Shown here piece by piece: positions 3,226 through 21,954 of a stretch of DNA of 24,000 bases. The translations under genes were made by a program, and so were the position numbers. How positions within the stretch are numbered: position 1 is the stretch's first letter; every line of letters starts with the position of its first letter. Below the pieces are notes generated by a model, which saw nothing but the letters and a program-made list of their open reading frames with translations, did no database searches and was not told the DNA's origin. The stretch comes from Candidatus Hodarchaeota archaeon (GTDB lineage Archaea; Asgardarchaeota; Heimdallarchaeia; Hodarchaeales; Hodarchaeaceae): the NCBI GenBank assembly GCA_016839625.1, contig JAEOTY010000021.1:2263-26262 (forward strand), in the 5' to 3' direction.

Positions 3226-3792
3226 ATGCCATTAAAGAAAGGAGTTTTTTCCAGATTAAAGAAAAAGATTGGTATAACGACTAATTATTCCCAATTAGTT
3301 GTTGAATATGATAAACAATTAACATTACGACCTGATGATATTGATACTCTTCTTCTTCGAGCTCAGGCGTATGTTGAGCTGCAAGAATTTCAAAAGGCGA
3401 TTACTGACTATACCAATATTTTGCAGTTGAAATCTGAGTCTCCTGAGGTATTACATAAACGAGGAGAAGCATATAGTTATTTGGGTAACTACCAACAAAG
3501 TATTGTGGATTATTCAAAAGCCATCGAATTGGACCCTACGAATGCTACTCATTTTCACTTCCGTGCTGTCGCATATTTTTTGAATGGTCAACATCAAAAA
3601 TCGATTAAAGATTATTCTAAGGCTCTTAAATTGAATCCTTTTGTTGCTCGGAGTTATTATGGTCGTGGTAATAGTTATTTTGCTCTGAAAGATTACCAAC
3701 GGGCAATTCAAGACTATACAAGTGCTCTTAAGTTAATAGACAAATATCCCAAACAAGCTCAAAAAGAAGATCCAACGAGAATTGATGCTTAA
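3226..3792 (+). CDS. Tetratricopeptide (TPR) repeat protein, N-terminal segment ending at an in-frame TAA
   Basis: The track ORF has repeated 34-aa TPR units, e.g. AYVELQEFQKAITDYTNILQL, GEAYSYLGNYQQSIVDYSKAIELDP and GNSYFALKDYQRAIQDYTSALKL. It starts with ATG and ends at TAA 3790-3792. Confidence 0.8.
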   Translation: MPLKKGVFSRLKKKIGITTNYSQLVVEYDKQLTLRPDDIDTLLLRAQAYVELQEFQKAITDYTNILQLKSESPEVLHKRGEAYSYLGNYQQSIVDYSKAIELDPTNATHFHFRAVAYFLNGQHQKSIKDYSKALKLNPFVARSYYGRGNSYFALKDYQRAIQDYTSALKLIDKYPKQAQKEDPTRIDA

Positions 3793-4980
3793 TTGAAAAG
3801 AGGAGAAGCCTTTGAACGTATCAACGATTTTTCCAGAGCTAATAGAGACTATTCTAGTGTCATTGAATCAGACACAACACGAGTATACGCCTGGGGAAGA
3901 AGGGGGATGACGTATTTAAGTGTAGGAAAACTTGATGAAGCATATCACGATTTTAATAAGAGTATTGAATTAGCTCCGAATGATTTTCTGGGATATTTTA
4001 ATCGTGGGAATGTTTTTTTCTACTCCAGACGGTTTCGTGAGGCCATAACCGATTTTTCTAAAACTATTGAATTACATGCGGATGATTTTCAAGCTCATCT
4101 GAACCGGGGTAATTGTTGGAGGGAGCTTCAAGAGTACGAAAAAGCTCTTTCTGATTATTCTGTGGCAATTTCAATTGATATAAACTATGTAAATGCCTAT
4201 TTAAATCGTGGTAGCGTTTTTCTCAATTTAAAGGACTATGACAAAGCGATAACGGATTTTAACAAAGTCCTCGAATTAGACCCAGTTAATGCATCAGCTT
4301 ACGCCAACCGTGCAATTGCTTATGAAGGAATGCAAGAATATGACAAGGCTTTGGAAGATTCTACAAAAGCAATCAGTTTGAATCCTAGTTTCCATCAAGC
4401 TTATTTTAATCGGGGAATGGTTTACTTATTGATACAAGAACATTCTCAAGCTCTTACTGATTTCACGAAAAGTATTGAATTATTTGCCAACCCAGACGCT
4501 TATTATTGGAGAGCAGAAGCAGCCGCGAAGTTACACAAATTTGAACGAGCTATTCGTGATTGGAAGACCAGTGGTTTTCTGTATATGCGCTACAGGAACT
4601 ATGATGTATCTGTAAAATCATTTAAGTCAGCATATGATGTCCATGTCCAAAATAATGTTATTACTGATGACGGTCTAGTCTCCACCTTAATGTATTATGC
4701 TGTAAGTTCAGATTCCCAGGTAGAACAAAGCCTAACACAAATGTACGAGGAATATAAGACTCAAATTCAAGAAAAAATTCTATTGAAATTTTTGGACATA
4801 ATAGTAGAAAAAATTTCCAGTCAAAAAGTATCGCCTAAGATTGCTGAAAGATTAAATGTCTTGAGTGAGGCAATTAATTCAGCAAATGATCTAAATAAGG
4901 AAACAAAGCAGGAATTTTTAAGGCTTTCGATAATCATTAAACAGAAATATCTTGACGAGTTAAAAGGAGTCCCTCCCTAA
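3793..4980 (+). CDS. TPR repeat protein, continuation segment in the same frame as 3226-3792, with a non-TPR helical C-terminal tail
   Basis: At least 7 further TPR units are present (RGNVFFYSRRFREAITDFSKTIEL, RGNCWRELQEYEKALSDYSVAISID, RGSVFLNLKDYDKAITDFNKVLELDP and others). The track start is a TTG directly abutting the preceding stop. The first in-frame ATG is at 3907. Confidence 0.75.
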   Translation: MKRGEAFERINDFSRANRDYSSVIESDTTRVYAWGRRGMTYLSVGKLDEAYHDFNKSIELAPNDFLGYFNRGNVFFYSRRFREAITDFSKTIELHADDFQAHLNRGNCWRELQEYEKALSDYSVAISIDINYVNAYLNRGSVFLNLKDYDKAITDFNKVLELDPVNASAYANRAIAYEGMQEYDKALEDSTKAISLNPSFHQAYFNRGMVYLLIQEHSQALTDFTKSIELFANPDAYYWRAEAAAKLHKFERAIRDWKTSGFLYMRYRNYDVSVKSFKSAYDVHVQNNVITDDGLVSTLMYYAVSSDSQVEQSLTQMYEEYKTQIQEKILLKFLDIIVEKISSQKVSPKIAERLNVLSEAINSANDLNKETKQEFLRLSIIIKQKYLDELKGVPP

Positions 4981-6144: not shown

Positions 6145-7126
6145 TCAAATTTTAATTTCTTTAGCAATTTCTTTCACAGTATGAATAAAATTGTCAAAAT
6201 CTACCGATCTACTCCTGTGATTAGTGATTGCTACTCTAATCGCAAATTCTCCTCGTAATATTGTATAGGAGGGTACTGCAATACCGCGTTCATGTAGTTG
6301 ATGAATAATTTCCTCATTTAATCTAGTCAGCTTTTCTTGATCCATACCTTCTTTCTGGTATCTAAAACATACGTTATTCATGGATGTGGGTGCAAGGAGT
6401 TCCAAATTCTCTTCTTTCTCTATTAACCCTGTCAGATATTCTGCTTGTTGAATATTCTGTTCTACTAATCGTCCGTATTTTTTTATTCCATGCTCTTTTA
6501 GGCTCATCCAAATTTTTAATGTTTTGAATTCGTCTGACATTTCAAAACCATAATCAGTGAACCATATCTTCCCTCCTGTTACCCCCGTATCCCCTGTGAA
6601 CAATAAGCTGGGCTAAGAGCGAATGTACGGTAGTGATCTTTTGCGCTTTTTACAAGAACGCAACCAGCTGCATAGTTCACATACATCCACTTATGAAAAT
6701 CAAAAGCAATGGAGTCTGCTTGTGTTATCCCATCCGCTAGGTGATTTGACTTTGGAGCTATTTTGGTTAATGCACCAAACGCGCCATCGATATGGAACCA
6801 CATGTTTTGTTGTTTAGCAATATTTGCTAGAGCATTAAGATCATCTACAGCTCCTGTATTGACTGTCCCAAGATTTCCAATGATACAAATCGGTTTGTAA
6901 TTATTCTCCCTATCACTTTCTCTCTTATTTCCTCGTATATTGAGTGTATGTCCTGTCCCTCCGTAGGTAGAAGTTGTTGAAACTTCTCCTTTACTTCCTC
7001 TGGGATTGGCCGCCATACTGGTTGTTCTCAGATACTCTTTAGATAATCAACCATATTATCGATGATTCGATGTCCTAATTTTCTCGTTTCTTCCCAACTT
7101 TCAAGATCTAAAGTCTCTTCTATCAT
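6145..7126 (-). pseudogene. Decayed group II PLP-dependent amino-acid decarboxylase
   Basis: Three pieces lie in three different frames. (1) ATG at 7126 gives MIEETLDLESWEETRKLGHRIIDNMVDYLKSI, then TGA (7028-7030), then EQPVWRPIPEEVKEKFQQLLPTEGQDIHSIYEEIREKV. (2) The track ORF 6579-7016 contains GTVNTGAVDDL...WFHIDGAFG...DSIAFDFHKW, the PLP-lysine motif. (3) The track ORF 6145-6603 contains the C-terminal small domain (FKTLKIWMSLKEHG...). About 150 codons between the N-terminal region and the GT..TGA.D block are missing. Confidence 0.75.
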
Positions 7127-12071: not shown

Positions 12072-12845
12072 CTAATCATAAATAAATTGAATAGTCTTCC
12101 GTTCAGAGTCAGCCCAAGAGGCTCGTTCGGATTCTACCATTAGTTTCATGAGCATACGAACATCTGGCGGCGGGAGAGACGACCAAGATTGCTTCATTTT
12201 AACAATATCAAAAGCTGTGACCATATCATAACCGTGTTGAAAGGCATACTGGTATAACTCATCAGTATGGGACTTTAGGGTTTTCCAGTACACCCGAAGT
12301 CGTGTTTGTTCAGAATCCCACCATTTAGCTTTATCAATTTCAACCAAATACTCAGAAATCATAACTAGTTGGGGAAGAGTTAATTTTTTCTTCAGAATAG
12401 AATTTTGGAAAGGATAAACTAGCGCTACTTCTTGTAAATCAAGAATGTGGAAATTTAATACTCGGGCAAAATCAAGTATAAATTCGCCCCACGTAATGAG
12501 CCATTGTTGCTTGAGCTGTGGGTCATCAGGTACCATCCAGCGCCAAGGTTTTTTTACCCACGCAGGCAGAACTGGTTTTACTCGGGGATCAACGACTCCT
12601 GGTTGAAGTGTTGTAGTAAGAGAAGGTTTTACAGTTGATTCAACTGCTGTACGAATCTCAGGTATTGTCTTGTGTTGAAAAGATGGAGTTGTTGAAGGTC
12701 GTGACATTTCAGTGCTTATTTGTGTTAAATCTGGAGATTCTATCTCCGTCTTTTCCTTCGCAACCTCATCTAAGACTGATCCGAGAATATCTATTGATTC
12801 AGTTTTTTTCTTCTCTTTGTCTCTTTTTCGTTGCATTTCAGCCAT
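12072..12845 (-). CDS. vps25: ESCRT-II subunit Vps25-like protein with an N-terminal low-complexity extension of about 100 aa
   Basis: Residues from about 100 to 257 follow the tandem winged-helix pattern of eukaryotic VPS25: PWRWMVPDDPQLKQQWLITWGEFILDFARVLNFHILDLQE...PFQNSILKKKLTLPQLVMISEYLVEIDKAKWWDSEQTRLRVYWKTLKSHTDELYQYAFQHG. Compare human FPPFFTLQPN..TRQKQLAAW..LVL.FCR...LFNN..L.RKL...I..VL..L...GN.EW.D... Confidence 0.75.
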   Translation of the reverse strand: MAEMQRKRDKEKKKTESIDILGSVLDEVAKEKTEIESPDLTQISTEMSRPSTTPSFQHKTIPEIRTAVESTVKPSLTTTLQPGVVDPRVKPVLPAWVKKPWRWMVPDDPQLKQQWLITWGEFILDFARVLNFHILDLQEVALVYPFQNSILKKKLTLPQLVMISEYLVEIDKAKWWDSEQTRLRVYWKTLKSHTDELYQYAFQHGYDMVTAFDIVKMKQSWSSLPPPDVRMLMKLMVESERASWADSERKTIQFIYD

Positions 12846-12887: not shown

Positions 12888-14036
12888 TTAACCCCCAAAT
12901 TGGTCTTTCCACTCTTCAAAACGCGTCAATTCTTTGGGTGACACTGAGGGTTTGATACTTTCCATACCTACAAGAAAATCCTTTGAACTTGGGGCTCGAG
13001 GTTGAATGGTTGTATCTTTTAGGGCTCCATCAGCGTCGAGCTCCCTGATCGGAGACATCAATGCTTCACGACAGAGTAGAGCAATATCTGCAGCTGTGTA
13101 TCCAGCAGTATACTTTGATAATTCCTCAAAACTCACATCAGGATCTAGATTCACGCCACGAGTATGAATCTGAAACATTTTTTCTCGGGCTCCTGTTGTT
13201 GGCAACGTTACATATACCCGTCTTTCAAATCGTCGGCGCATTGCTGCATCTATATCCCAGGGTGTGTTTGTTGCCCCAACTGTCACCAGTAGTTCATCTC
13301 CTGTACCAAATCCCTCAACTGCTTGTAATAATTGTGTTTTTACACGACGCATTGCTTCTCCTTCAGAACTGCCTCCTCTTGCTCCTGCTAGTGAGTCAAT
13401 TTCGTCAAAAAATATTATAGAAGGTGCTTCTTCAGTCGCCCGCTCATATAATTCCTGTACTAACTTTTCTGATTCTCCTAACCATTTGCTAATCAAGTTC
13501 GCTGCGCTGACAGAAAAAAATGTTGAGTCTACTTCTGATGCAACGGCCTTGCAGAGATAGGTTTTTCCACATCCAGGGGGGCCGTACATTAAAATTCCCT
13601 TCCATGGTTTCCGAGCACCTTTGAATAAATCGGGCCTAGACATAGGGAGGATGATGGCTTCTCGTAAGGCGCGTTTTGCACCTTCCATACCTGCGACATC
13701 TTCCCATTTAACATTGGGTTTTTCACGAACAATTACACTTGATATTGCTCCAGATATTTCATCTTCTGCTTCCGGTGATGCTGAGGCTGAAGAGCTTGTC
13801 TTACCTTCAGAAGAACCTGGTATACCACGAATTTCTTTTACACGAAGAATATATTCCATGGCTTTTTGATAGTACATATTCTTCATATTTGGGTCTTCAG
13901 TAAAATTAATCAGCTTTTGTAACTGTTCTGCAGCACTTACATAATAGCGTACAGCTTGTTGAGCTTGGCCACCTTGATCGAGTTTATATGCCATGGCTGC
14001 ATTCTTTTTGGCAGCATCAAACAATGGTGAACTCAT
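12888..14036 (-). CDS. vps4: Vps4/CdvC-type AAA+ ATPase with an N-terminal MIT domain
   Basis: The MIT-like three-helix N-terminus is AMAYKLDQGGQAQQAVRYYVSAAEQLQKL...YYQKAMEYILRVKEIR. Walker A is ILMYGPPGCGKTYL and Walker B is IIFFDEIDSL. The second region of homology is TNTPWDIDAAMRRRFERR. The product is 382 aa. Confidence 0.92.
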   Translation of the reverse strand: MSSPLFDAAKKNAAMAYKLDQGGQAQQAVRYYVSAAEQLQKLINFTEDPNMKNMYYQKAMEYILRVKEIRGIPGSSEGKTSSSASASPEAEDEISGAISSVIVREKPNVKWEDVAGMEGAKRALREAIILPMSRPDLFKGARKPWKGILMYGPPGCGKTYLCKAVASEVDSTFFSVSAANLISKWLGESEKLVQELYERATEEAPSIIFFDEIDSLAGARGGSSEGEAMRRVKTQLLQAVEGFGTGDELLVTVGATNTPWDIDAAMRRRFERRVYVTLPTTGAREKMFQIHTRGVNLDPDVSFEELSKYTAGYTAADIALLCREALMSPIRELDADGALKDTTIQPRAPSSKDFLVGMESIKPSVSPKELTRFEEWKDQFGG

Positions 14037-14104: not shown

Positions 14105-14719
14105 CTACCCTTTCTTGATTTTCTCCAATTCTTTTTGTAGTTCTTGGGATCGAATGTCAGGTGAAGGTAGTCCAAAATCAGCCGCAGCTGCCTTAGAAGC
14201 ACTTAATTCTCCTATTATCTTGTCTACCATTTCATCTTCCTCAATATCGGAGGTCATCATCTCAAACCCTTCATCCATGGCTTCAGTAGCCATGTCAACC
14301 CTTTCGGTTTCGATCTCCATCTGTTCAAGGACACCTTCTAGTTGAGGAATCTTAAGCTGTCTATTCATGGCGTGAAGTGTTTTCACTAGTCCCTTAAGAT
14401 CCTGACCTATGGCTTGAGTGGCTGCAGCTTGTTCTAGCTTGAATTTAATTCCTTTTACTCGACTCGCCATTTGTTGACATCCACGGGCCATGGTTCGATT
14501 TTTAGCTACATCTTTCGCTAATAGTCTTGCGGTCGACATATCGCCTTGTTCGATGGATCTCTCGACTTCCTTGAGCATCCGTTTTTCTTCTTTAATGAGT
14601 TTTCTCCGCTGACGATCCATTCGTCTTTCTACCATGCGAAGTCGACTAATCCATCTTCGTGTGGATTTTGCTCCACTACCTCCGCCTTTCAACCATTGTC
14701 CGAATTTATCGAAAACCAT
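14105..14719 (-). CDS. ESCRT-III (Snf7 family) protein, Vps2/24/46 (CHMP2/3/1)-like
   Basis: The 204-aa product has a basic N-terminal helical hairpin (RRMDRQRRKLIKEEKRMLKEVERSIEQGDMSTARLLAKDVAKNR), an acidic C-terminal half, and a terminal amphipathic helix SQELQKELEKIKKG that fits the MIM1 pattern L-x3-L-x2-[LI]-K. Confidence 0.85.
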   Translation of the reverse strand: MVFDKFGQWLKGGGSGAKSTRRWISRLRMVERRMDRQRRKLIKEEKRMLKEVERSIEQGDMSTARLLAKDVAKNRTMARGCQQMASRVKGIKFKLEQAAATQAIGQDLKGLVKTLHAMNRQLKIPQLEGVLEQMEIETERVDMATEAMDEGFEMMTSDIEEDEMVDKIIGELSASKAAAADFGLPSPDIRSQELQKELEKIKKG

Positions 14720-14721
14720 GT

Positions 14722-15396
14722 CTAGGACCTCAATCCTTCTTCAATCTGTCGTCTCATTTCATCTAGCTTCTTTTTATCAGCTTCACGCTTGGCAGGAGCT
14801 GCTGTTTCAGTCACAGTAGTGGTAGGAGTGGATGTTTCGATATTTGCTGCTGGTAATGAGCCTGACATTTCAGCTTCCAGCTCAGCCATTTGCATAGAGA
14901 TACGATCATCTGCCTCGACATCCATACCAATTTCTGTAATTGAGGTATCAGTCAAGGCTTCATCCATATCTGAAACCATCTCTATGGACTCTTCCAAAGA
15001 CATCATGACTTCTTCTGTTTTTTCAGGAGAAGCAGCTTCAACGTTAGCATCAATAGCCGTTTGGGCATGCGATAAGGTGTCTGTAAGAGTGACGTTATCC
15101 GCAGAGATGTCTAACGTATCAATCGTTCTTTGAAGGTTTGCAATTTTATTGTAAGTGTTTGTAACCTGAGTTAAATAGAGTTCACGGCGTTTTAATGCCT
15201 GTTGAGCTCCTAGTTTATTTCCAGCTTTCAACAGAGTTCGAGCAAGCTCATATTGTTCATTCGATTGTCTTTGATAGTTTTTAATTTTGACTTCCATTTG
15301 ATTGATGGTTCTCTTTAATTTGGCTTTCGTTTCAGTCGAACTACTAGGTTTTTTTCCGGTTAAAAAACCTCTAAATCTTTTCAAGGGTAAATTCAT
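14722..15396 (-). CDS. ESCRT-III (Snf7 family) protein, Vps20/32/60 (CHMP6/4/5)-like
   Basis: The 224-aa product has a basic N-terminal half with the Snf7-like block ARTLLKAGNKLGAQQALKRRELYLTQVTNTYNKIANLQRTIDTLD, a strongly acidic C-terminal half, and a C-terminal helix KKKLDEMRRQIEEGLRS. Its stop lies 2 nt before the start of the next ESCRT-III gene. Confidence 0.8.
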   Translation of the reverse strand: MNLPLKRFRGFLTGKKPSSSTETKAKLKRTINQMEVKIKNYQRQSNEQYELARTLLKAGNKLGAQQALKRRELYLTQVTNTYNKIANLQRTIDTLDISADNVTLTDTLSHAQTAIDANVEAASPEKTEEVMMSLEESIEMVSDMDEALTDTSITEIGMDVEADDRISMQMAELEAEMSGSLPAANIETSTPTTTVTETAAPAKREADKKKLDEMRRQIEEGLRS

Positions 15397-15600: not shown

Positions 15601-16317
15601 TCAAACCCCTGGAAAAGAAATGACCATTCCATCTAGAGTTTCAGTTTTAATTGCAATTTTCTGTTGGATTAGTTTTGTCAGAGCTTGATTCACACGTTCT
15701 AATGTCCATGATGTCTCTTGAACCAACTCGGTTAAACCAATTTCTCCTTGAAATCGAGCTGCTAGTTCCAGTATAACTTGGTGGTCTTTGGTTAGATTTG
15801 GATCTACAAAAACAACCACTTTCATGCCAGCTAATTGACGGATTTCATGAATCATACCATTTTTTTCTAATAAACTTAGAGCAGTTGTGATATCAGCGAT
15901 TGACGTTGTAATGCCTCGACTCTCATCTGTTAATTTTAACACTAATTCAGATACACTTAGAAGACCACCAGTTTGATTTCTCACTTGTTTTCCAATTTCA
16001 AGTATCCTGATTGCCAAAAAATTGTGATATTCATCCGTTCCCTTCAAACGCTGAATGAAACCTGATTTTTTACCGACTTCATAAATCCCGAGTGCACGTG
16101 GAAGACCGACTTCTTCCCTAAGATTCATTAAACGTTTTGAGAGTTCGGGATTTTTCTTTATATCAGCTTGATACTTTTTTTCTAACGTTTGTAACTCAGT
16201 GTGAAGCTCTTGGACTTTCTTGCTCATAGTATCTAAGGATTTCAGTGCCATTTCTGCACCTTTCCGCTTCATTTCAGCTTCCCTGGTGAGCTTCTCTTCA
16301 ATTCGTCGTAATCCCAT
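15601..16317 (-). CDS. vps22: ESCRT-II subunit Vps22/36-like protein (EAP30 domain)
   Basis: The 238-aa product is collinear with human SNF8/EAP30. Matching blocks are KYQADIKKNPELSKRLMNLREEVGLPRALG (vs KHKQEIRKNPEFRVQFQDMCATIGVDPLASG), YHNFLAIRILEIGKQVRNQTGGLLSVSEL (vs [28 protein letters not shown]) and DHQVILELAA (vs DHTVVLQLAE). Confidence 0.85.
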   Translation of the reverse strand: MGLRRIEEKLTREAEMKRKGAEMALKSLDTMSKKVQELHTELQTLEKKYQADIKKNPELSKRLMNLREEVGLPRALGIYEVGKKSGFIQRLKGTDEYHNFLAIRILEIGKQVRNQTGGLLSVSELVLKLTDESRGITTSIADITTALSLLEKNGMIHEIRQLAGMKVVVFVDPNLTKDHQVILELAARFQGEIGLTELVQETSWTLERVNQALTKLIQQKIAIKTETLDGMVISFPGV

Positions 16318-16555
16318 GAGAATTCCTATCTTTTCTTCTTTGATGTCAAGATTAATTGGATTTACTTTATTTATAATTTTATATTTTCCGATACCGGATA
16401 ATCATGCTAAGGCTAATAATGCTGCTTACAAGGATGAATAATGATTCTACTTAACACATTCTGGAAAACAGATGAAATCTAATAATACCATATTATGTCC
16501 AGATTTTGTATGCTTATAAACATCAAACTGAATTACGTACCTACTGGGATTATAC
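16318..16555. promoter_or_regulatory. AT-rich divergent intergenic region, probably holding promoters for the Vps22/36-like gene (-) and the Zn-finger gene (+)
   Basis: The 238-nt non-coding gap lies between divergent starts. TATA-like TTATAAA at 16514-16520 sits 36-42 nt upstream of the + ATG. An A/T block at 16366-16386 (minus-strand reading ATATAAAATTATAAATAAA) sits 50-70 nt upstream of the minus ATG. There is no experimental support. Confidence 0.35.
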
Positions 16556-17893
16556 ATGGTGCTCGAGCCGGCTTCCGGGAGATCAAACCTGTTTTGTTCA
16601 TTTTGTGGTACTATGGTTCGTGAATTAGAATCCCAGAAATGTTTAGACTGTGGTGCAGCATTCTGCCAGCAATGCGCCTCCCGCTTACAAATCAATGGAA
16701 TCCAACTTAAATGTCCATGTGGTTCAGCCAATATCGAATCTGGATCTCCAGAACAAAATTCACAGACTCAAACTTTGGAACATATTTTTAGTTTGAAACG
16801 CTCTTTAAAACAAGTAGGTTATCGTCCCGTAATTATGCTTAAACGAACTGGCCATCTTGAATCAAGATTGAGAGCTTTTCGAAAACAATTTCTTATCCCA
16901 GGAAATCAGATTGATAAAATATTCCTCGACACCAAAAAGATTGAAAATTTTATACTATCAGAGTTTCAGGAATATTCTTCCAAATTAAGTCGACTATATC
17001 GTAGTGTAATGGGCCTAGATTCCTCATTCATCGATCATCGCAATCTTTCTCTTCAACTAACGCTTTTTCATAAGCAGGTTGATAGTTTTGATCAAACAGT
17101 TCAAGACAAACTTCAACCAATTTTTAGTTTAATTGAGCAATTAGAGGATAAGTGCGATCAGTTTGACGAGATGTCACGACATCTTGGACGGTGCTTTGAT
17201 GCTTTTGTTTTTGTACCTGGTGAACTTGCTATTGGTTTTTTCTCTAATGTTGAATTAAGGAACAATCGGATAAGAAAGTTTACAATAGACTTGTTAATTA
17301 CTACTGACCGAATTGTAATGTTTTGTAAAAAGAGGACCAAAATAATTGGTCAAAAAACAATAATTTATGATGAATTTCCTCCTGAAGATCTGATTGATGT
17401 TCAAAAGACAAATGCGGGTTTCTTAAAACGTGATAAGCTTCAAATAACAACCATTAAGCATGATTATGAATTACGTGCGAATTTCGAGACTTTAATGCGT
17501 ATCTTTGATGCTCTCCAATTGAGTTACTACGGCCGTCCAAGTGAAATCTATATTCATGAACCTTTTCGAGATTGGTCTTCAGAGATTTATCAAGAAAAAA
17601 TACTCTCTTACCTTAATTTCCAAACTAAAGTTAGTGGGTCTTCCAATCCAACCAATGACCATGAAAGAGAACCTGATTTTGTAACAGGGGTTCTCGACGA
17701 CCGTCTTCGTGATCTGCGTCTTCGCAAACTAGCAAATGAAAAGGCATTGCAAGAACTTAAGGAGGGGCGGAAAAAAGTAGCTAGTCGAGATTATTTCGAC
17801 CTAGTTAGACAATTCGAATTAGAACTAGCCAAAATAAATGAAGCGATGACAGAATTACTAGTCCGAACAGGAAAAACAAATCTTTTGAATTAA
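16556..17893 (+). CDS. Uncharacterised ESCRT-cluster protein with an N-terminal 8-Cys RING-like zinc finger, a central PH/GRAM(GLUE)-like region, and a C-terminal coiled coil with a steadiness-box-like motif
   Basis: The product is 445 aa. Cys spacing is C14-x2-C17-x11-C29-x2-C32-x4-C37-x2-C40-x12-C53-x-C55. Residues about 218-321 (GELAIGFFSNVELRNNRIRKFTIDLLITTDRIVMFCKK...DLIDVQKTNAGFLKRDKLQITTIKHDYELRANFETLMRIFDAL) follow the PH/GRAM strand pattern. Residues 378-435 have coiled-coil heptads ending in KKVASRDYFDLVRQFELELAKI. Confidence 0.7.
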   Translation: MVLEPASGRSNLFCSFCGTMVRELESQKCLDCGAAFCQQCASRLQINGIQLKCPCGSANIESGSPEQNSQTQTLEHIFSLKRSLKQVGYRPVIMLKRTGHLESRLRAFRKQFLIPGNQIDKIFLDTKKIENFILSEFQEYSSKLSRLYRSVMGLDSSFIDHRNLSLQLTLFHKQVDSFDQTVQDKLQPIFSLIEQLEDKCDQFDEMSRHLGRCFDAFVFVPGELAIGFFSNVELRNNRIRKFTIDLLITTDRIVMFCKKRTKIIGQKTIIYDEFPPEDLIDVQKTNAGFLKRDKLQITTIKHDYELRANFETLMRIFDALQLSYYGRPSEIYIHEPFRDWSSEIYQEKILSYLNFQTKVSGSSNPTNDHEREPDFVTGVLDDRLRDLRLRKLANEKALQELKEGRKKVASRDYFDLVRQFELELAKINEAMTELLVRTGKTNLLN

Positions 17894-17906
17894 ATCAATG
17901 ATATAT

Positions 17907-18536
17907 TCAGAGATTCGCCAACTCTCTACGAAAATCTGAAAGCCATCGTGCTGTTTGTAATTCTAGCTTTTTCAATTCATCTTGTCTTAATAGCTGGCCT
18001 GGTTTCTGTCTATCCATCCACTTAATCCACTCATCGATATCTCTTGTTACCCAATGATTAGACCCATAGACATGAGCTTCAGTTAAAATTGCATGGAGCT
18101 CATCTAAATATGGTAGAATCCGATCTACGGTAGCAATGGCTTCTAACCGAAGAAGGTCCAATACCTCGATGGCGTTGGCAACAAACTCGGCAGCAATCTT
18201 TGGTAATTTTTTAATTTGACTATAATCAATACGGTTTCGAGCATTATCATCTGTTCCCTCTGTTATCCGGAGTTTTTCAAGACCGTGGGGATATTGTTGA
18301 TCGATTTTTTCTTCCCGAATGAAATCATCTAAATCAAATTGGTAGGTTTCTAGCTTTGCTCGGATTGCAACAATGGTCGTTAAGAGATTTTTATGCTGTT
18401 TATGAAAGATATTCGGATCTAACTCGCCTTTTTCGTATGTCCGAGATAAAAGATCAAGAGTCCCAATAGTCGCAAATAATTGCCCTTCCAATTCCCAACG
18501 TTTTGTTAGATTTGGAGGAAAAGTCATTAATTTCAT
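17907..18536 (-). CDS. vps28: ESCRT-I subunit Vps28-like protein
   Basis: The 209-aa product has an N-terminal core LFATIGTLDLLSRTYEKGELDPNIFHKQHKNLL. Its C-terminal four-helix-bundle block AAEFVANAIEVLDLLRLEAIATVDRILPYLDELHAIL...EWIKWMDRQKPGQLLRQDELKKLELQTARWLSDFRREL is collinear with eukaryotic VPS28 (...FIT.MD.LKL......I.P.L.DL...L....WL..L..M.ASDEL.E.Q.RQL.FDLE.AY..F...L). Confidence 0.85.
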   Translation of the reverse strand: MKLMTFPPNLTKRWELEGQLFATIGTLDLLSRTYEKGELDPNIFHKQHKNLLTTIVAIRAKLETYQFDLDDFIREEKIDQQYPHGLEKLRITEGTDDNARNRIDYSQIKKLPKIAAEFVANAIEVLDLLRLEAIATVDRILPYLDELHAILTEAHVYGSNHWVTRDIDEWIKWMDRQKPGQLLRQDELKKLELQTARWLSDFRRELANL

Positions 18537-18537
18537 C

Positions 18538-19329
18538 CTATCCCAAGTATTCCGTTTGTTTTCGAGCTATATAGAGTTCCTTGGAGTACTTTTTATATAA
18601 ACGTGAGTATTCGAAAATTGAGATCTCACCAGAGGCATAACGGTCTTCAAGTGCCGCTAATAGCTCTGAGATAGCAATACGTTCTGATTCGATGCTATCT
18701 TGGGTTGAAAGCCTTTTGCCCTCATCACTATCTGAGGGTTGTGCTTGAGTCATTTGTTGTGCATGAAATCGAGCCAATTCTTCATCTTTTTCTTGTATTT
18801 GTTTAGTTAATGAGGATAACTCTGTTCTTAGCGCTGTTGTTTCTGCAAATACTGTCTTATTTGGAGACACTGGAGGTGTTTCTATTATACGTGCTACTGT
18901 ATCGCGAACAGATTTAGCAGTTTCTCCTTTAGGAGTGGGAGGCACTCTAGACATCAGATTTTTTAGTGCAATGATCACTTGATAGAGATGAAACTCAGCA
19001 CGCCAATTATCCAAGATTCGTAATTGAACAAAACCATCATCATCAATGTTAGGGTGATCCATCCATCCCACTGCTGTTACTACAGGAGGAACGTTAGGAA
19101 AGTATTCTGGAAGAAATATTTCAAATGTAAACATGTTACGGCCACGATTGGTGGTATATGTCAAGGTTCCTTTCCATCTAGCCAAGGAATCTCCCACAGG
19201 ATTAAAACCAAAAGCTGCTGAATTAGAATATACCAGTTGTGCCTCTCGAGCTAAAATAAAATCTTTATCCATATTTGTGGCTCCTTTCTTCAAATTAAAT
19301 ACTGAATCATTAATGTATTTAAATTTCAC
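18538..19329 (-). CDS. ESCRT-I Vps23/Tsg101-like protein: UEV (inactive E2 variant) domain, coiled-coil stalk and C-terminal steadiness box
   Basis: The UBC-fold blocks are WKGTLTYTTNRGRNMFTFEIFLPEYFPNVPPVV and DHPNIDDDGFVQLRILDNW. The position of the E2 catalytic Cys (HPN...G.IC.DIL) is Gln102 (codon 19024-19026). The tail LLAALEDRYASGEISIFEYSRLYKKYSKELYIARK resembles the Tsg101 steadiness box (L..AL..G.I.L..FLK.VR.LSR.QF). An alternative start is Met20 (19272). The stop lies 1 nt from the Vps28-like start. Confidence 0.8.
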   Translation of the reverse strand: MKFKYINDSVFNLKKGATNMDKDFILAREAQLVYSNSAAFGFNPVGDSLARWKGTLTYTTNRGRNMFTFEIFLPEYFPNVPPVVTAVGWMDHPNIDDDGFVQLRILDNWRAEFHLYQVIIALKNLMSRVPPTPKGETAKSVRDTVARIIETPPVSPNKTVFAETTALRTELSSLTKQIQEKDEELARFHAQQMTQAQPSDSDEGKRLSTQDSIESERIAISELLAALEDRYASGEISIFEYSRLYKKYSKELYIARKQTEYLG

Positions 19330-19490: not shown

Positions 19491-20711
19491 TTATTTTTTC
19501 CCCCTAGGTTTTTTCACAGTAGTTAAAAAATCTATAATAGCTTCTCCTAACAACTCGAATGCTTGTTCAACATTCTGGCCTGTTTTGGCACTTGTAGATA
19601 GAAAGTAAATCTTGAAACCTCGGTATTGTTCAGCAATTTGAGACAGTCTTTCAACAAATACTTTCGCTTTATTTTCAGACACACAAGGGATTCCCGAGCT
19701 AGATAAGTCTACTTTGTTTCCCAAAACAACTAACGGGACAGGACCATGCCCATTGTTCCGCCAAAGCTCATTCAGCCATTTGGGTATGTTTTGAAAGCTT
19801 TCTGGACGAGTTACATCAAAAACAAGTAATGCACCTACACTGGCAGAATAATAAGCTTTCCGAACGTTATTAAAACGAGGTTGACCTGCCAGATCCCAGA
19901 TCAAGTATTTGATTTGTTTACCACCACTATATACTATATCAGATGTTTTAGCAGCAAGATCGGCTCCTATTGTCATTTGATAGTCATCACGAAATCCTTC
20001 GCCTAAGTAACGTCTCCTAATGGACGTTTTACCAACTGCACCATCTCCAATTAAAATAACCTTTAACGTATGATGTTCTTGAACAAAAGTTGCTTTTACT
20101 GACGTGATAGCTTCATCAATGGCTGCACGTAATTCTGGATTGGTCTTAATATTTTGATCAGTATGATAATTCAGGATTTGTACAATTTGAACGGCTAACG
20201 TACCCACCATATCTCGTGATGTTCCCTTAGATGTCACTATGGCGATAACCAACTCTCCAATGACGAAGAAATGAATTGTTTGAGATTCGAGAGTAAGAAC
20301 CTCCAACAATTCGCCAAGATTGTAGCGGACATAACTTTTTATTGCATAAAAAATGAAGTTCATAGATTCCTTATAGTCAATTTTATCGGAGAGCTGATAA
20401 TTAAACAATAATTGCCCATTGTTCATAAAACATGAAATTAAGAAAATTTCTTCAGTCTTTTTTGCTCGTTCTAATCCAAATTTTTTGAAATCCGCTATCT
20501 GATCCTCTTCAGTTTTTTCAGCTTGAGCATAAGCTTCTTCAATGATGTTCAAATAATCGCCCCGTCCCGATAATGCCTTTTCAAGATCTACTCGAACTTT
20601 CAGTTCGAACTCCTCCATTTCGTCAGGGCGTTGATCATTTGTGATCTTGGTTTCAAGTGTTTTTGGCTCTTTCTTTTCGTTTGTCTCGAAAGAAGAGTCT
20701 TTTTCTTCCAT
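19491..20711 (-). CDS. Fusion protein with an acidic N-terminal region, a roadblock/LC7(longin-like) domain and a Rab/Ras-like small GTPase domain
   Basis: The GTPase motifs are G1 GDGAVGKTS, switch I YQMTIGADL, G3 WDLAGQ, G4 GNKVDL and G5 STSAKTG (aa about 215-400). Residues about 88-182 (IFLISCFMNNGQLLFNY...HFFVIGELVIAIVTSKGTSRDMVGTLAVQIVQIL) show a roadblock/MglB-like alpha-beta pattern. Confidence 0.85.
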   Translation of the reverse strand: MEEKDSSFETNEKKEPKTLETKITNDQRPDEMEEFELKVRVDLEKALSGRGDYLNIIEEAYAQAEKTEEDQIADFKKFGLERAKKTEEIFLISCFMNNGQLLFNYQLSDKIDYKESMNFIFYAIKSYVRYNLGELLEVLTLESQTIHFFVIGELVIAIVTSKGTSRDMVGTLAVQIVQILNYHTDQNIKTNPELRAAIDEAITSVKATFVQEHHTLKVILIGDGAVGKTSIRRRYLGEGFRDDYQMTIGADLAAKTSDIVYSGGKQIKYLIWDLAGQPRFNNVRKAYYSASVGALLVFDVTRPESFQNIPKWLNELWRNNGHGPVPLVVLGNKVDLSSSGIPCVSENKAKVFVERLSQIAEQYRGFKIYFLSTSAKTGQNVEQAFELLGEAIIDFLTTVKKPRGKK

Positions 20712-20976: not shown

Positions 20977-21954
20977 ATGGGTGAATTATTAGGACCTTTA
21001 GATGATCAAATCATTATTTTATTGCAAACATTCAGTCCACTCCTTGATCTAATTTTTGGATTAATCACTTTTTTTGGAGATGAACTATTTATAATCGCAA
21101 TTATAGTTATTATTTTCTTCTGTATCGATAAGGAGATAGCAATTCGATCAGCTTTTTTGGTTGTTTTTACAGGTTTCATAACGACTTCAGCAAAAGGAGT
21201 ATTTGGTCTTAAGAGACCATACATCGTTAATGATGCAGAGATACAAGGAATCCCTGATATTATAGGACAACTTCCAGAAGATTATACTTTTCCAAGTGGT
21301 CATTCATCCAATGCGGGATCATTCTGGACATATTTAGCCACACGTTGGCGTAATCCTAGTTTTTGGGCCATTGCCATATTCATGATTGTAATTATCCCTC
21401 TTTCACGTAGCTATCTAGGTGTACATTGGCCAACTGATATAATTGTGGGAGCTTTGCTAGGAATTTCAGTTGCTTTACTGTTTACTTATTTTTTACCCAA
21501 GATAGAAGTTTTTGTTAATAAAACCTCACCCAGAACTCTTGGAATATTTGCTATAGTTATTCCTATTTTAGGGGTTATTATTTCTTACATGCTTACAATC
21601 GGAATGGGTAATGAAATAGAACACGCTGATCCTAGTTCATTAGGGGGGCTTTTTCTTGGCTTAGCTGTTGGTTATATCCTTGAAAATCGTTATGTAAATT
21701 TGAAAGTGAAAGAATTTCGATCGAACAAGAAAATACTTGTCTATCGGGGAATTGCAGGGGTTATTATTATCCTAGCATTGTACTTTGGTATGAGTGCTAT
21801 TTTTAAAATTCTTTTTGAAGGTTTTCCCCTTGAATATATCTCACGATTCATCAGATATGCAATTCTAGCATTTTTTGGTATCTTTTGTCTCCCATGGTTA
21901 TTTTCTACAATTGAACAAAAATTATTATTGGAGCCTGGAGGTTTAGCGGAATAG
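20977..21954 (+). CDS. PAP2-superfamily membrane phosphatase (phosphatidic acid or polyprenyl-diphosphate phosphatase type)
   Basis: All three PAP2 signature motifs are present: KGVFGLKRPY (KxxxxxxRP), FPSGHSSNAG (PSGH) and SRSYLGVHWPTDIIVGALLG (SRxxxxxHxxxD). There are multiple TM helices, and extra C-terminal TMs follow. Confidence 0.85.
   Translation: MGELLGPLDDQIIILLQTFSPLLDLIFGLITFFGDELFIIAIIVIIFFCIDKEIAIRSAFLVVFTGFITTSAKGVFGLKRPYIVNDAEIQGIPDIIGQLPEDYTFPSGHSSNAGSFWTYLATRWRNPSFWAIAIFMIVIIPLSRSYLGVHWPTDIIVGALLGISVALLFTYFLPKIEVFVNKTSPRTLGIFAIVIPILGVIISYMLTIGMGNEIEHADPSSLGGLFLGLAVGYILENRYVNLKVKEFRSNKKILVYRGIAGVIIILALYFGMSAIFKILFEGFPLEYISRFIRYAILAFFGIFCLPWLFSTIEQKLLLEPGGLAE

Follow-up and report, generated by a model that had tools for sequence, protein, structure and literature searches.

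The window analysed here is a stretch of 24,000 nt from an assembly of Candidatus Hodarchaeota archaeon (GCA_016839625.1, contig JAEOTY010000021.1, positions 2,263 to 26,262 of the forward strand). [quoted passage not shown] The protein is composed of an N-terminal zinc module, three long helices, a PH-fold domain and a C-terminal helical hairpin that resembles a steadiness box (SB). On balance we favour the view that it is the Hodarchaeales form of an Asgard zinc–coiled-coil–PH–SB protein and serves as an accessory subunit of archaeal ESCRT-I, a membership of the complex that we infer. The gene and the elements of its product are located as follows, the structural assignments being taken from an AlphaFold2 (AF2) model of the whole protein that was built from a 24-sequence alignment and has a mean predicted local confidence (pLDDT) of 79.6.

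16556-17893, plus strand: target gene for the 445-aa zinc–helical bundle–PH–SB protein, from its ATG start to its TAA stop inclusive, taken from the list of open reading frames (ORFs), the homologues and the AF2 model.
16586-16735, plus strand: zinc module, residues 11-60, with eight Cys at positions 14, 17, 29, 32, 37, 40, 53 and 55.
16760-17191, plus strand: three long helices (the 'coiled-coil' region), residues 69-106, 116-151 and 162-212, pLDDT mostly 85-97.
17213-17533, plus strand: PH-fold domain, residues 220-326, modelled as seven strands and a C-terminal helix.
17552-17617, plus strand: post-PH segment EPFRDWSSEIYQEKILSYLNF, residues 333-354, identified by conservation, with a short modelled helix at 343-353 (pLDDT ~70-89).
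17627-17674, plus strand: variable-length linker, residues 358-373, modelled with low confidence (pLDDT <50 over 358-377).
17675-17869, plus strand: SB-like helical hairpin, residues 374-402 and 410-438, from the model (pLDDT ~51-88) and from hhalign alignment to the SB of the neighbouring UEV protein (UEV-SB).

The target gene is real and conserved. Its 52 close homologues are 49-92% identical to it, and the closest relatives are labelled Hodarchaeota, Hodarchaeales or Heimdallarchaeota. Distant relatives were sought by an exhaustive hidden Markov model (HMM) search of 1.84 billion representatives, which returned 20 matches in total; the named ones are mostly labelled Hodarchaeota, Hodarchaeales or Heimdallarchaeota LC_3. 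Several distant relatives are full-length at 17-34% identity with the domain order kept, and what they retain is an N-terminus rich in Cys, the helical region, the strand motif TTxR, W340 and, at the C-terminal end, [DE]-[YF]-[YF]-x-L. Pfam and NCBIfam scans of the target gave nothing above threshold. Conservation was measured among 12 representatives that are less than 60% identical to each other, and the cysteines were aligned over 32 relatives. In the post-PH segment the near-invariant W340 and L353 are at least 80% conserved among these divergent representatives. The linker is much longer in one subfamily, where the member P0059 of locus L028 carries a long low-complexity insert at this position (565 aa as called, 594 aa with a corrected start).

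Some database records of these relatives need correction. The submitter labels Thor-, Prometh- and Hermod- sit on orthologues of 76-77% identity in identical loci, and are therefore unreliable. The gene calls for P0059 (L028, 9914-11698) and P0064 (L029, 9860-11230) are truncated because their starts were set too far downstream; extending the ORFs upstream brings back the eight-Cys finger in both.

At the C-terminal end of the protein, profile comparison indicates that the hairpin is homologous to the SB of the UEV-Vps23 protein encoded two genes away. Using only the close family, hhalign aligned the target C-terminus with UEV-SB with a score of 16.7-19.1 (E 0.02). With 14 diverse target sequences the score was 23.2 (E 0.0028), and UEV-SB stood at the top of 28 real and reversed profiles, the runner-up scoring 16.4. 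When 32 target and 25 UEV sequences were used, with the divergent subfamilies included, the score was 29.6 (E 1.9e-4) over 51 columns that pair target residues 381-431 with UEV residues 207-259 and cover both helices of the hairpin. A signal from true remote homologues would be expected to grow in this way with the diversity of the alignment. An independent hhalign run gave a score of 22.5 (E 5.5e-4), and controls with 14 neighbour families, forward and reversed, scored at most 17.7 (E 0.04 or worse). The accepted SB pair, namely the UEV-SB C-terminus and the Vps28 N-terminus, scored 20.0 (E 0.009), so the match between the target and UEV-SB is stronger than that between the two accepted members. 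An earlier note on this DNA, made from the sequence alone, had pointed to a SB motif common to the two proteins; the motif is present as written there, and the alignment at E 1.9e-4 places it in the same register.

The two proteins thus share a C-terminal hairpin with the motif [IV]-x3-[DE]-[YF]-x2-L-x-[KR]-x-[FY]. They differ in that the target has no UEV domain and its N-terminal architecture is entirely other. A profile of the C-terminal region compared with PDB sequences by HMMER found no match to Vps23, Vps37 or Vps28. However, the accepted Asgard UEV SB profile did not match eukaryotic Vps23 in the PDB by HMMER either, so that method is too insensitive for SB hairpins and the negative result for the target weighs little. 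In the same kind of comparison the Asgard SB motif 'GEISxxE[FY]xRL' was seen to recur in the repeats of the phycobilisome linker ApcE (UEV SB profile against the PDB, E 0.023); this likeness is probably due to chance or to a convergent helical motif.

The helices of the stalk run directly into the SB hairpin in both Vps23 and Vps37, and yeast Vps37 has a basic N-terminal helix. The target is like Vps37 (Mod_r) in having a C-terminal hairpin of SB type that could act as a third headpiece subunit beside Vps23 and Vps28, together with a predicted membrane-binding element elsewhere in the chain. Unlike Vps37 it has zinc, helical-bundle and PH domains, and Mod_r (PF07200) had no match in the target family (Pfam, 18 members). 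The earlier suggestion that the C-terminus is the motif of a Vps37/Mvb12-like partner therefore holds for the SB-like hairpin and not for resemblance to Vps37 in detail, since there is neither a stalk helix nor a Mod_r signal.

The genes that surround the target in the window are listed below.

12072-12845, minus strand: Vps25, from a Pfam ESCRT-II match and its translation.
12888-14036, minus strand: Vps4, from its translation and from the same genes in the same order, labelled by Pfam, in related loci.
14105-14719 and 14722-15396, minus strand: two ESCRT-III genes, from their translations and from the same genes and order in related loci.
15601-16317, minus strand: EAP30/Vps22-family ESCRT-II gene, the divergent neighbour (Pfam EAP30 E 6.5e-17, residues 2-220 of 238).
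16318-16555, no strand: divergent intergenic spacer of 238 nt between EAP30 and the target, read directly from the sequence.
17907-18536, minus strand: Vps28, the convergent neighbour (Pfam VPS28 E 1.7e-12).
18538-19329, minus strand: UEV and steadiness-box (Vps23-like) gene (Pfam UQ_con E 9.7e-14, UEV E 3e-4).
19491-20711, minus strand: Ras/Rab-like GTPase, with the GTPase domain at residues 217-392.

From Vps25 (12072) to the GTPase gene (20711) the target is the sole gene on the plus strand, in agreement with the earlier observation that it is alone on that strand inside the cluster, and the description of it as divergent from EAP30 and convergent with Vps28 was also correct. The stop codon of Vps28 occupies 17907-17909, leaving a gap of 13 nt (17894-17906) to that of the target. 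The spacer on the other side has A/T-rich TATA-like elements towards both genes, for example TTATAAA at 16513-16519, and these are candidate promoters. Pfam EAP30 spans almost all of the EAP30 protein, which has no N-terminal PH or GLUE domain. The UEV protein has HPNIDDDGFVQLRIL at the position of the E2 catalytic Cys and no Cys there, which fits a UEV. Its ORF is listed from a GTG as 263 aa; most orthologues are 244-258 aa long, and translation probably begins at the ATG at position 19272 (244 aa; MDKDFILAREAQ...). Beyond the GTPase the window has PAP2 and Yip1 genes on the plus strand, and then a minus-strand gene for an E1-like ThiF protein.

Synteny with ESCRT genes in other genomes, to which the earlier note had looked, is conserved: Vps28 adjoins the target gene in 25 of 28 distinct loci. 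Within the close family Vps28 is the immediate convergent neighbour in 21/21 loci and UEV-SB comes next in 20 of these, the remaining contig ending after Vps28. On the other, divergent side EAP30 is found next to the target in every one of the 20 loci whose contig extends so far. The adjacency to Vps28 is kept in four subfamilies that are only 17-29% identical to the target. In the divergent loci L026 (29% identity), L029 and L030 (~21%) there is a convergent Vps28 followed by UEV. L028 has the three genes co-directional in the order UEV→Vps28→target, and no ESCRT-II or ESCRT-III genes within 10 kb. The strongest and most persistent linkage is thus to the ESCRT-I genes.

The PH-fold domain has AF2 strands at 225-236, 239-249, 253-261, 265-274, 279-287, 292-299 and 303-307, and a helix at 310-325, the sandwich and helix (225-325) having a pLDDT of 75-94. 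The best single-domain match in the PDB found by Foldseek is the GLUE domain of Vps36 (2cay; E 1.4e-4, TMt 0.58, root-mean-square deviation (rmsd) 4.3 Å over 116 columns), and further matches are to the PH domains of DH-PH proteins and of GRK2. A PH/GRAM pattern had been proposed earlier at residues ~218-321. The segments named there are the strands and helix of the model, and the PH assignment is confirmed at the level of the predicted fold. No sequence-level link to PH, GRAM or GLUE was found by HMMER against Pfam or by comparing a profile of the PH region with PDB sequences. The domain has a median net charge of +3 and a pI of 9.3. Conserved basic residues lie in the loops, with R240, R252, R260, K267, K291 and R292 basic in at least 80% of relatives. 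These basic loops suggest binding of acidic lipids, and by analogy with the GLUE domain of EAP45 the PH domain might possibly bind ubiquitin.

In yeast Vps36 an NZF insertion mediates the binding of Vps28. The target resembles Vps36/EAP45 in its PH fold, the association with a zinc finger, the strand motif LLITTDRIV and basic loops compatible with lipid binding. It differs in having no winged-helix or EAP30 domains, in a PH domain that is not split by an NZF, and in a zinc module that is N-terminal and RING-like, not NZF. Among 18 members none matched Pfam EAP30 at E up to 5, and the AF2 model contains no winged-helix domains.

This resemblance raises the alternative that the target is a surrogate GLUE domain for ESCRT-II, or a bridge between ESCRT-I and ESCRT-II. 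The PH domain and zinc module would then act in trans, binding EAP30 or the C-terminal domain of Vps28, and so link the two complexes on the membrane. The divergent pairing with EAP30 across the 238-nt spacer would fit such a role, as would the structural match to Vps36 GLUE alongside an EAP30 protein that lacks an N-terminal PH domain. Moreover, members of the LC_3-type subfamily have the target gene at a distance of 7-36 kb from EAP30/ESCRT-III/Vps4, and not near Vps28. Hatano et al. (2022) reported that Asgard archaea are without Vps37 and full-length Vps36, and considered that undetermined factors probably bridge ESCRT-I and ESCRT-II in these organisms. Against this, the target has no winged-helix or EAP30 domain and its PH domain is contiguous, with no NZF insertion. 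The only homology to a neighbour that can be detected is that to the ESCRT-I SB: comparison of the helical bundle and PH regions with EAP30 gave E 0.09 or worse, and in L028 the target sits with UEV and Vps28 only. We regard this alternative, which overlaps in part with the ESCRT-I subunit that we favour, as rather unlikely.

The zinc module has the Cys spacing C14-x2-C17-x11-C29-x2-C32-x4-C37-x2-C40-x12-C53-x-C55, exactly as it had been described earlier. All eight cysteines are aligned in 28/32 relatives and at least 80% conserved in the 12 divergent representatives, where they are among the few positions so conserved. The N-terminal domain (residues 11-60) has a pLDDT of ~55-78 in the whole-protein model, and a separate model of residues 1-70 has a pLDDT of 70.6. 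The top Foldseek matches of the latter are RING domains (E 0.008-0.1, TMq 0.45-0.52), including those of Ring1b/Bmi1, TRAF6 and TRIM32 (E 0.008-0.03), and no match was found at E 0.001 or better. A profile of the whole protein matched PDB sequences by HMMER only weakly and only at zinc fingers, among them MID1 B-box1 (E 0.011) and a FYVE-RING protein (E 0.03); sub-threshold Pfam matches among 18 members were to FYVE (11/18), ANCHR-type B-box (10/18) and RING_2 (9/18).

The target spacing falls within that common to the cross-brace fingers of RING, B-box1 and FYVE (C-x2-C-x(9-14)-C-x2-C-x4-C-x2-C-x(8-35)-C-x(1-2)-C). It differs from these fingers in lying below every curated threshold and in a final C-x-C pair that is atypical for RING. 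The LC_3 homologue (L024 10001-11407, HeimC3_02860) has lost the second pair of cysteines together with one half of the fourth, while pairs 1 and 3 are kept. This pattern fits the loss of one site from a cross-brace; tandem ribbons would lose both sites. We therefore consider with moderate confidence that the module is a two-zinc RING/B-box-like cross-brace, and the earlier proposal of a cross-brace-compatible, RING-like module is borne out to that extent.

The FYVE motifs for binding phosphatidylinositol 3-phosphate are WxxD, R(R/K)HHCR and RVC. Binding of this kind was considered for the zinc module and rejected: the target has ELESQKCLDCGAAFC where R(R/K)HHCRxCG would be expected, WxxD and RVC are absent, and the best FYVE match (E 0.003) is sub-threshold.

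Tal/LRSAM1 acts on Tsg101, and by a parallel route the target might be a RING-type ubiquitin ligase or regulator. Its finger would then recruit an Asgard E2 and ubiquitylate ESCRT cargo or the SB of UEV-Vps23, with the PH domain and hairpin used only for targeting. The RING structures at the head of the Foldseek list are in keeping with this, as is the recurrence of weak RING, B-box and FYVE matches across members. An E1-like gene is present in the window, and ubiquitin and E1 genes occur in the same locus of relatives. Furthermore, Lu et al. (2024) reported that the Asgard UEV-Vps23 SB is ubiquitylated by an E1/E2/RING-E3 cascade. Yet no curated threshold is reached (RING_2 gives 11 bits on the target, where the cut-off is 27.3), the final pair of ligands departs from that of a typical RING, and one zinc site is gone in the LC_3 homologue. 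In addition, 16 related loci have a separate, canonical RING-H2-like protein with a dissimilar finger. Taken together, these points make a ligase improbable in our judgement.

In those loci the gene for this small RING-H2-like protein (CxxC…CxxC…H…H…W…CPxCR) lies ~9-10 kb downstream of the target, near ubiquitin and E1 genes; examples are L007 19854-20183, L026 17400-17777 and L030 20614-20919. The corresponding position falls past the right end of the window. There is no sequence similarity between its finger and the target zinc module. On the LC_3 contig, E1/Yip1/ubiquitin/RING genes lie ~13 kb from the target homologue and an EAP30–Vps25 block ~35 kb from it.

The three helices that separate the zinc module from the PH domain are likely to form an intramolecular bundle packed against the latter. 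Model confidence falls to a pLDDT of 64-79 at the loop 152-161. P91, V92, F132 and F178 are conserved across subfamilies, and the helical-bundle and PH regions have no profile similarity to any neighbour family (scores no higher than 16.5).

The best Foldseek matches of the whole model are to DH-PH tandems (Vav1, P-Rex1, Dbs and Trio; E 7e-6 to 1e-4). A Ras-family GTPase gene is located two genes away, conserved in the locus. The target could on these grounds be a DH-PH-like guanine nucleotide exchange factor or a BAR-PH-like regulator of the nearby Ras/Rab-like GTPase, or else have a function outside ESCRT and be merely syntenic with these genes. However, the TM scores are 0.19-0.27 when normalised to the query and 0.12-0.36 when normalised to the length of the matched structure, with an rmsd of mostly 15-23 Å over ~265-395 columns, so that the folds do not superpose. 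The DH-PH (RhoGEF) assignment was rejected on this basis, the matches reflecting 'helices plus PH' and not a shared fold. Three helices in ~145 residues also compare poorly with a DH domain of ~200 residues, no RhoGEF or BAR Pfam signal was present in 18 members at E up to 5, and the L028 target travels with UEV and Vps28 with no GTPase gene adjacent to them. We think a role of this kind very improbable. The GTPase itself has an N-terminal extension of ~200 residues that has no Pfam match, and it adjoins the ESCRT-I genes in all close Hodarchaeales loci.

A family with this domain organization has been described. Makarova et al. (2024, mBio; PMC10936438) reported the Asgard family 'Znr_CC_PH_SB / Znr_PH_CC_SB' (cog.011556) as 'a likely ESCRT-I component', the PH domain of which was expected to be membrane associated. 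The example given there is the 650-aa Lokiarchaeum GC14_75 protein As_004-p_01543. Lu et al. (2024) listed cog.011556 with the steadiness/Vps23-box asCOGs. The target and cog.011556 are alike in the domain order (zinc module, coiled-coil or helical region, PH, C-terminal SB), in their ESCRT neighbourhood and in the role proposed. They differ in that three zinc ribbons are described for the family, with 650 aa for the Lokiarchaeum example, whereas the target has 445 aa, eight Cys and two predicted zinc sites. The earlier note had considered the protein unassigned and of no named family, which was mistaken, and its interpretation re-derives a published hypothesis.

No Lokiarchaeal relative was present among the 20 matches of the exhaustive profile search, nor was one found in two word-indexed profile searches, whose negatives are weak given that word-indexed searching missed members of its own query alignment (e.g. 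P0056 and P0060). The LC_3 homologue is not among the entries in the available part of the LC_3 neighbourhood table of Makarova et al. (2024; PMC10936438). We take the target to be a member, possibly a variant, of the cog.011556 kind, matched to it by domain order and the published description rather than by proven sequence homology. In the literature searched we found no experimental characterisation of the target protein. What is added here is confirmation in another lineage, with measurements that back each domain and the synteny. The published description would also be refined, in that the zinc module appears RING-like rather than a set of ribbons. As a conserved protein whose gene stands between EAP30 and Vps28, and with its SB hairpin, its PH domain of the GLUE class and its zinc finger, the target is the obvious candidate for two questions, that of how the archaeal ESCRT-I headpiece is completed and that of how early ESCRT complexes find membranes.

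If the target is an accessory subunit of ESCRT-I, its hairpin (residues 374-438) would pack with the SB hairpins of UEV-Vps23 and Vps28, filling the third headpiece position that is held by Vps37 in eukaryotes. The flexible linker (358-373) would tether a rigid body composed of the three-helix bundle and PH domain to the headpiece. Since no stalk helix is present and the linker is disordered and varies in length, the part made up of helical bundle, PH domain and zinc finger would be a head on a flexible tether. Through its basic loops the PH domain could anchor the complex on acidic lipids of the membrane, and possibly on ubiquitin, in the way that the GLUE domain of Vps36 does, and the N-terminal two-zinc cross-brace finger may add a contact to protein or ubiquitin. 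Here we infer the stoichiometry, the binding of lipid and ubiquitin, and the role of the zinc module.

Several observations weigh against this assignment. The link to the SB is by profile-profile alignment only, with a probability of 30-48%; the target C-terminus compared directly with the Vps28 SB gave no signal (E 0.27), and HMMER finds no SB, Vps37 or PH family in the target. What precedes the hairpin is a disordered linker, where Vps23 and Vps37 have a stalk helix. Neither Vps28 nor UEV is next to the target gene in the LC_3-type subfamily (L024, L027 and L031). Lastly, Hatano et al. (2022) reported an Odinarchaeotal ESCRT-I composed of a Vps23 dimer and Vps28, with no third protein.

A more speculative proposal, which we think unlikely, is that one chain unites the third SB hairpin and membrane anchor of Vps37 with the PH and zinc-finger 'GLUE' module of Vps36, functions that eukaryotes split between ESCRT-I and ESCRT-II. 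If this were true, it would be ESCRT-I itself that recognises membrane and ubiquitin in the archaea most closely related to eukaryotes, and redistribution or replacement of such modules would have given rise to eukaryotic Vps37 and to the GLUE domain of eukaryotic Vps36.

We note some further features of the window. The PAP2 gene (20977-21954) is on the plus strand in the window and in the closest relatives (63-67% identity). In L002, L003, L012-L014 and L017-L020 the PAP2 gene is on the minus strand and only 30-35% identical, which suggests replacement or inversion at this position. A pair of ORFs that overlap, of 152 and 145 aa, occupies 6145-7016 on the minus strand. Both match the profile of the pyridoxal-dependent decarboxylase family, at positions 308-374 and 190-297, and nothing corresponds to its first ~190 positions. 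The pair has the appearance of a gene remnant left by frameshift and truncation, or of an error in the assembly. On the plus strand at 3226-4980 there are TPR-repeat ORFs of 188 and 395 aa in the same frame, split by a single TAA at 3790-3792. These may be one gene of ~580 aa with an in-frame stop, or two abutting genes.

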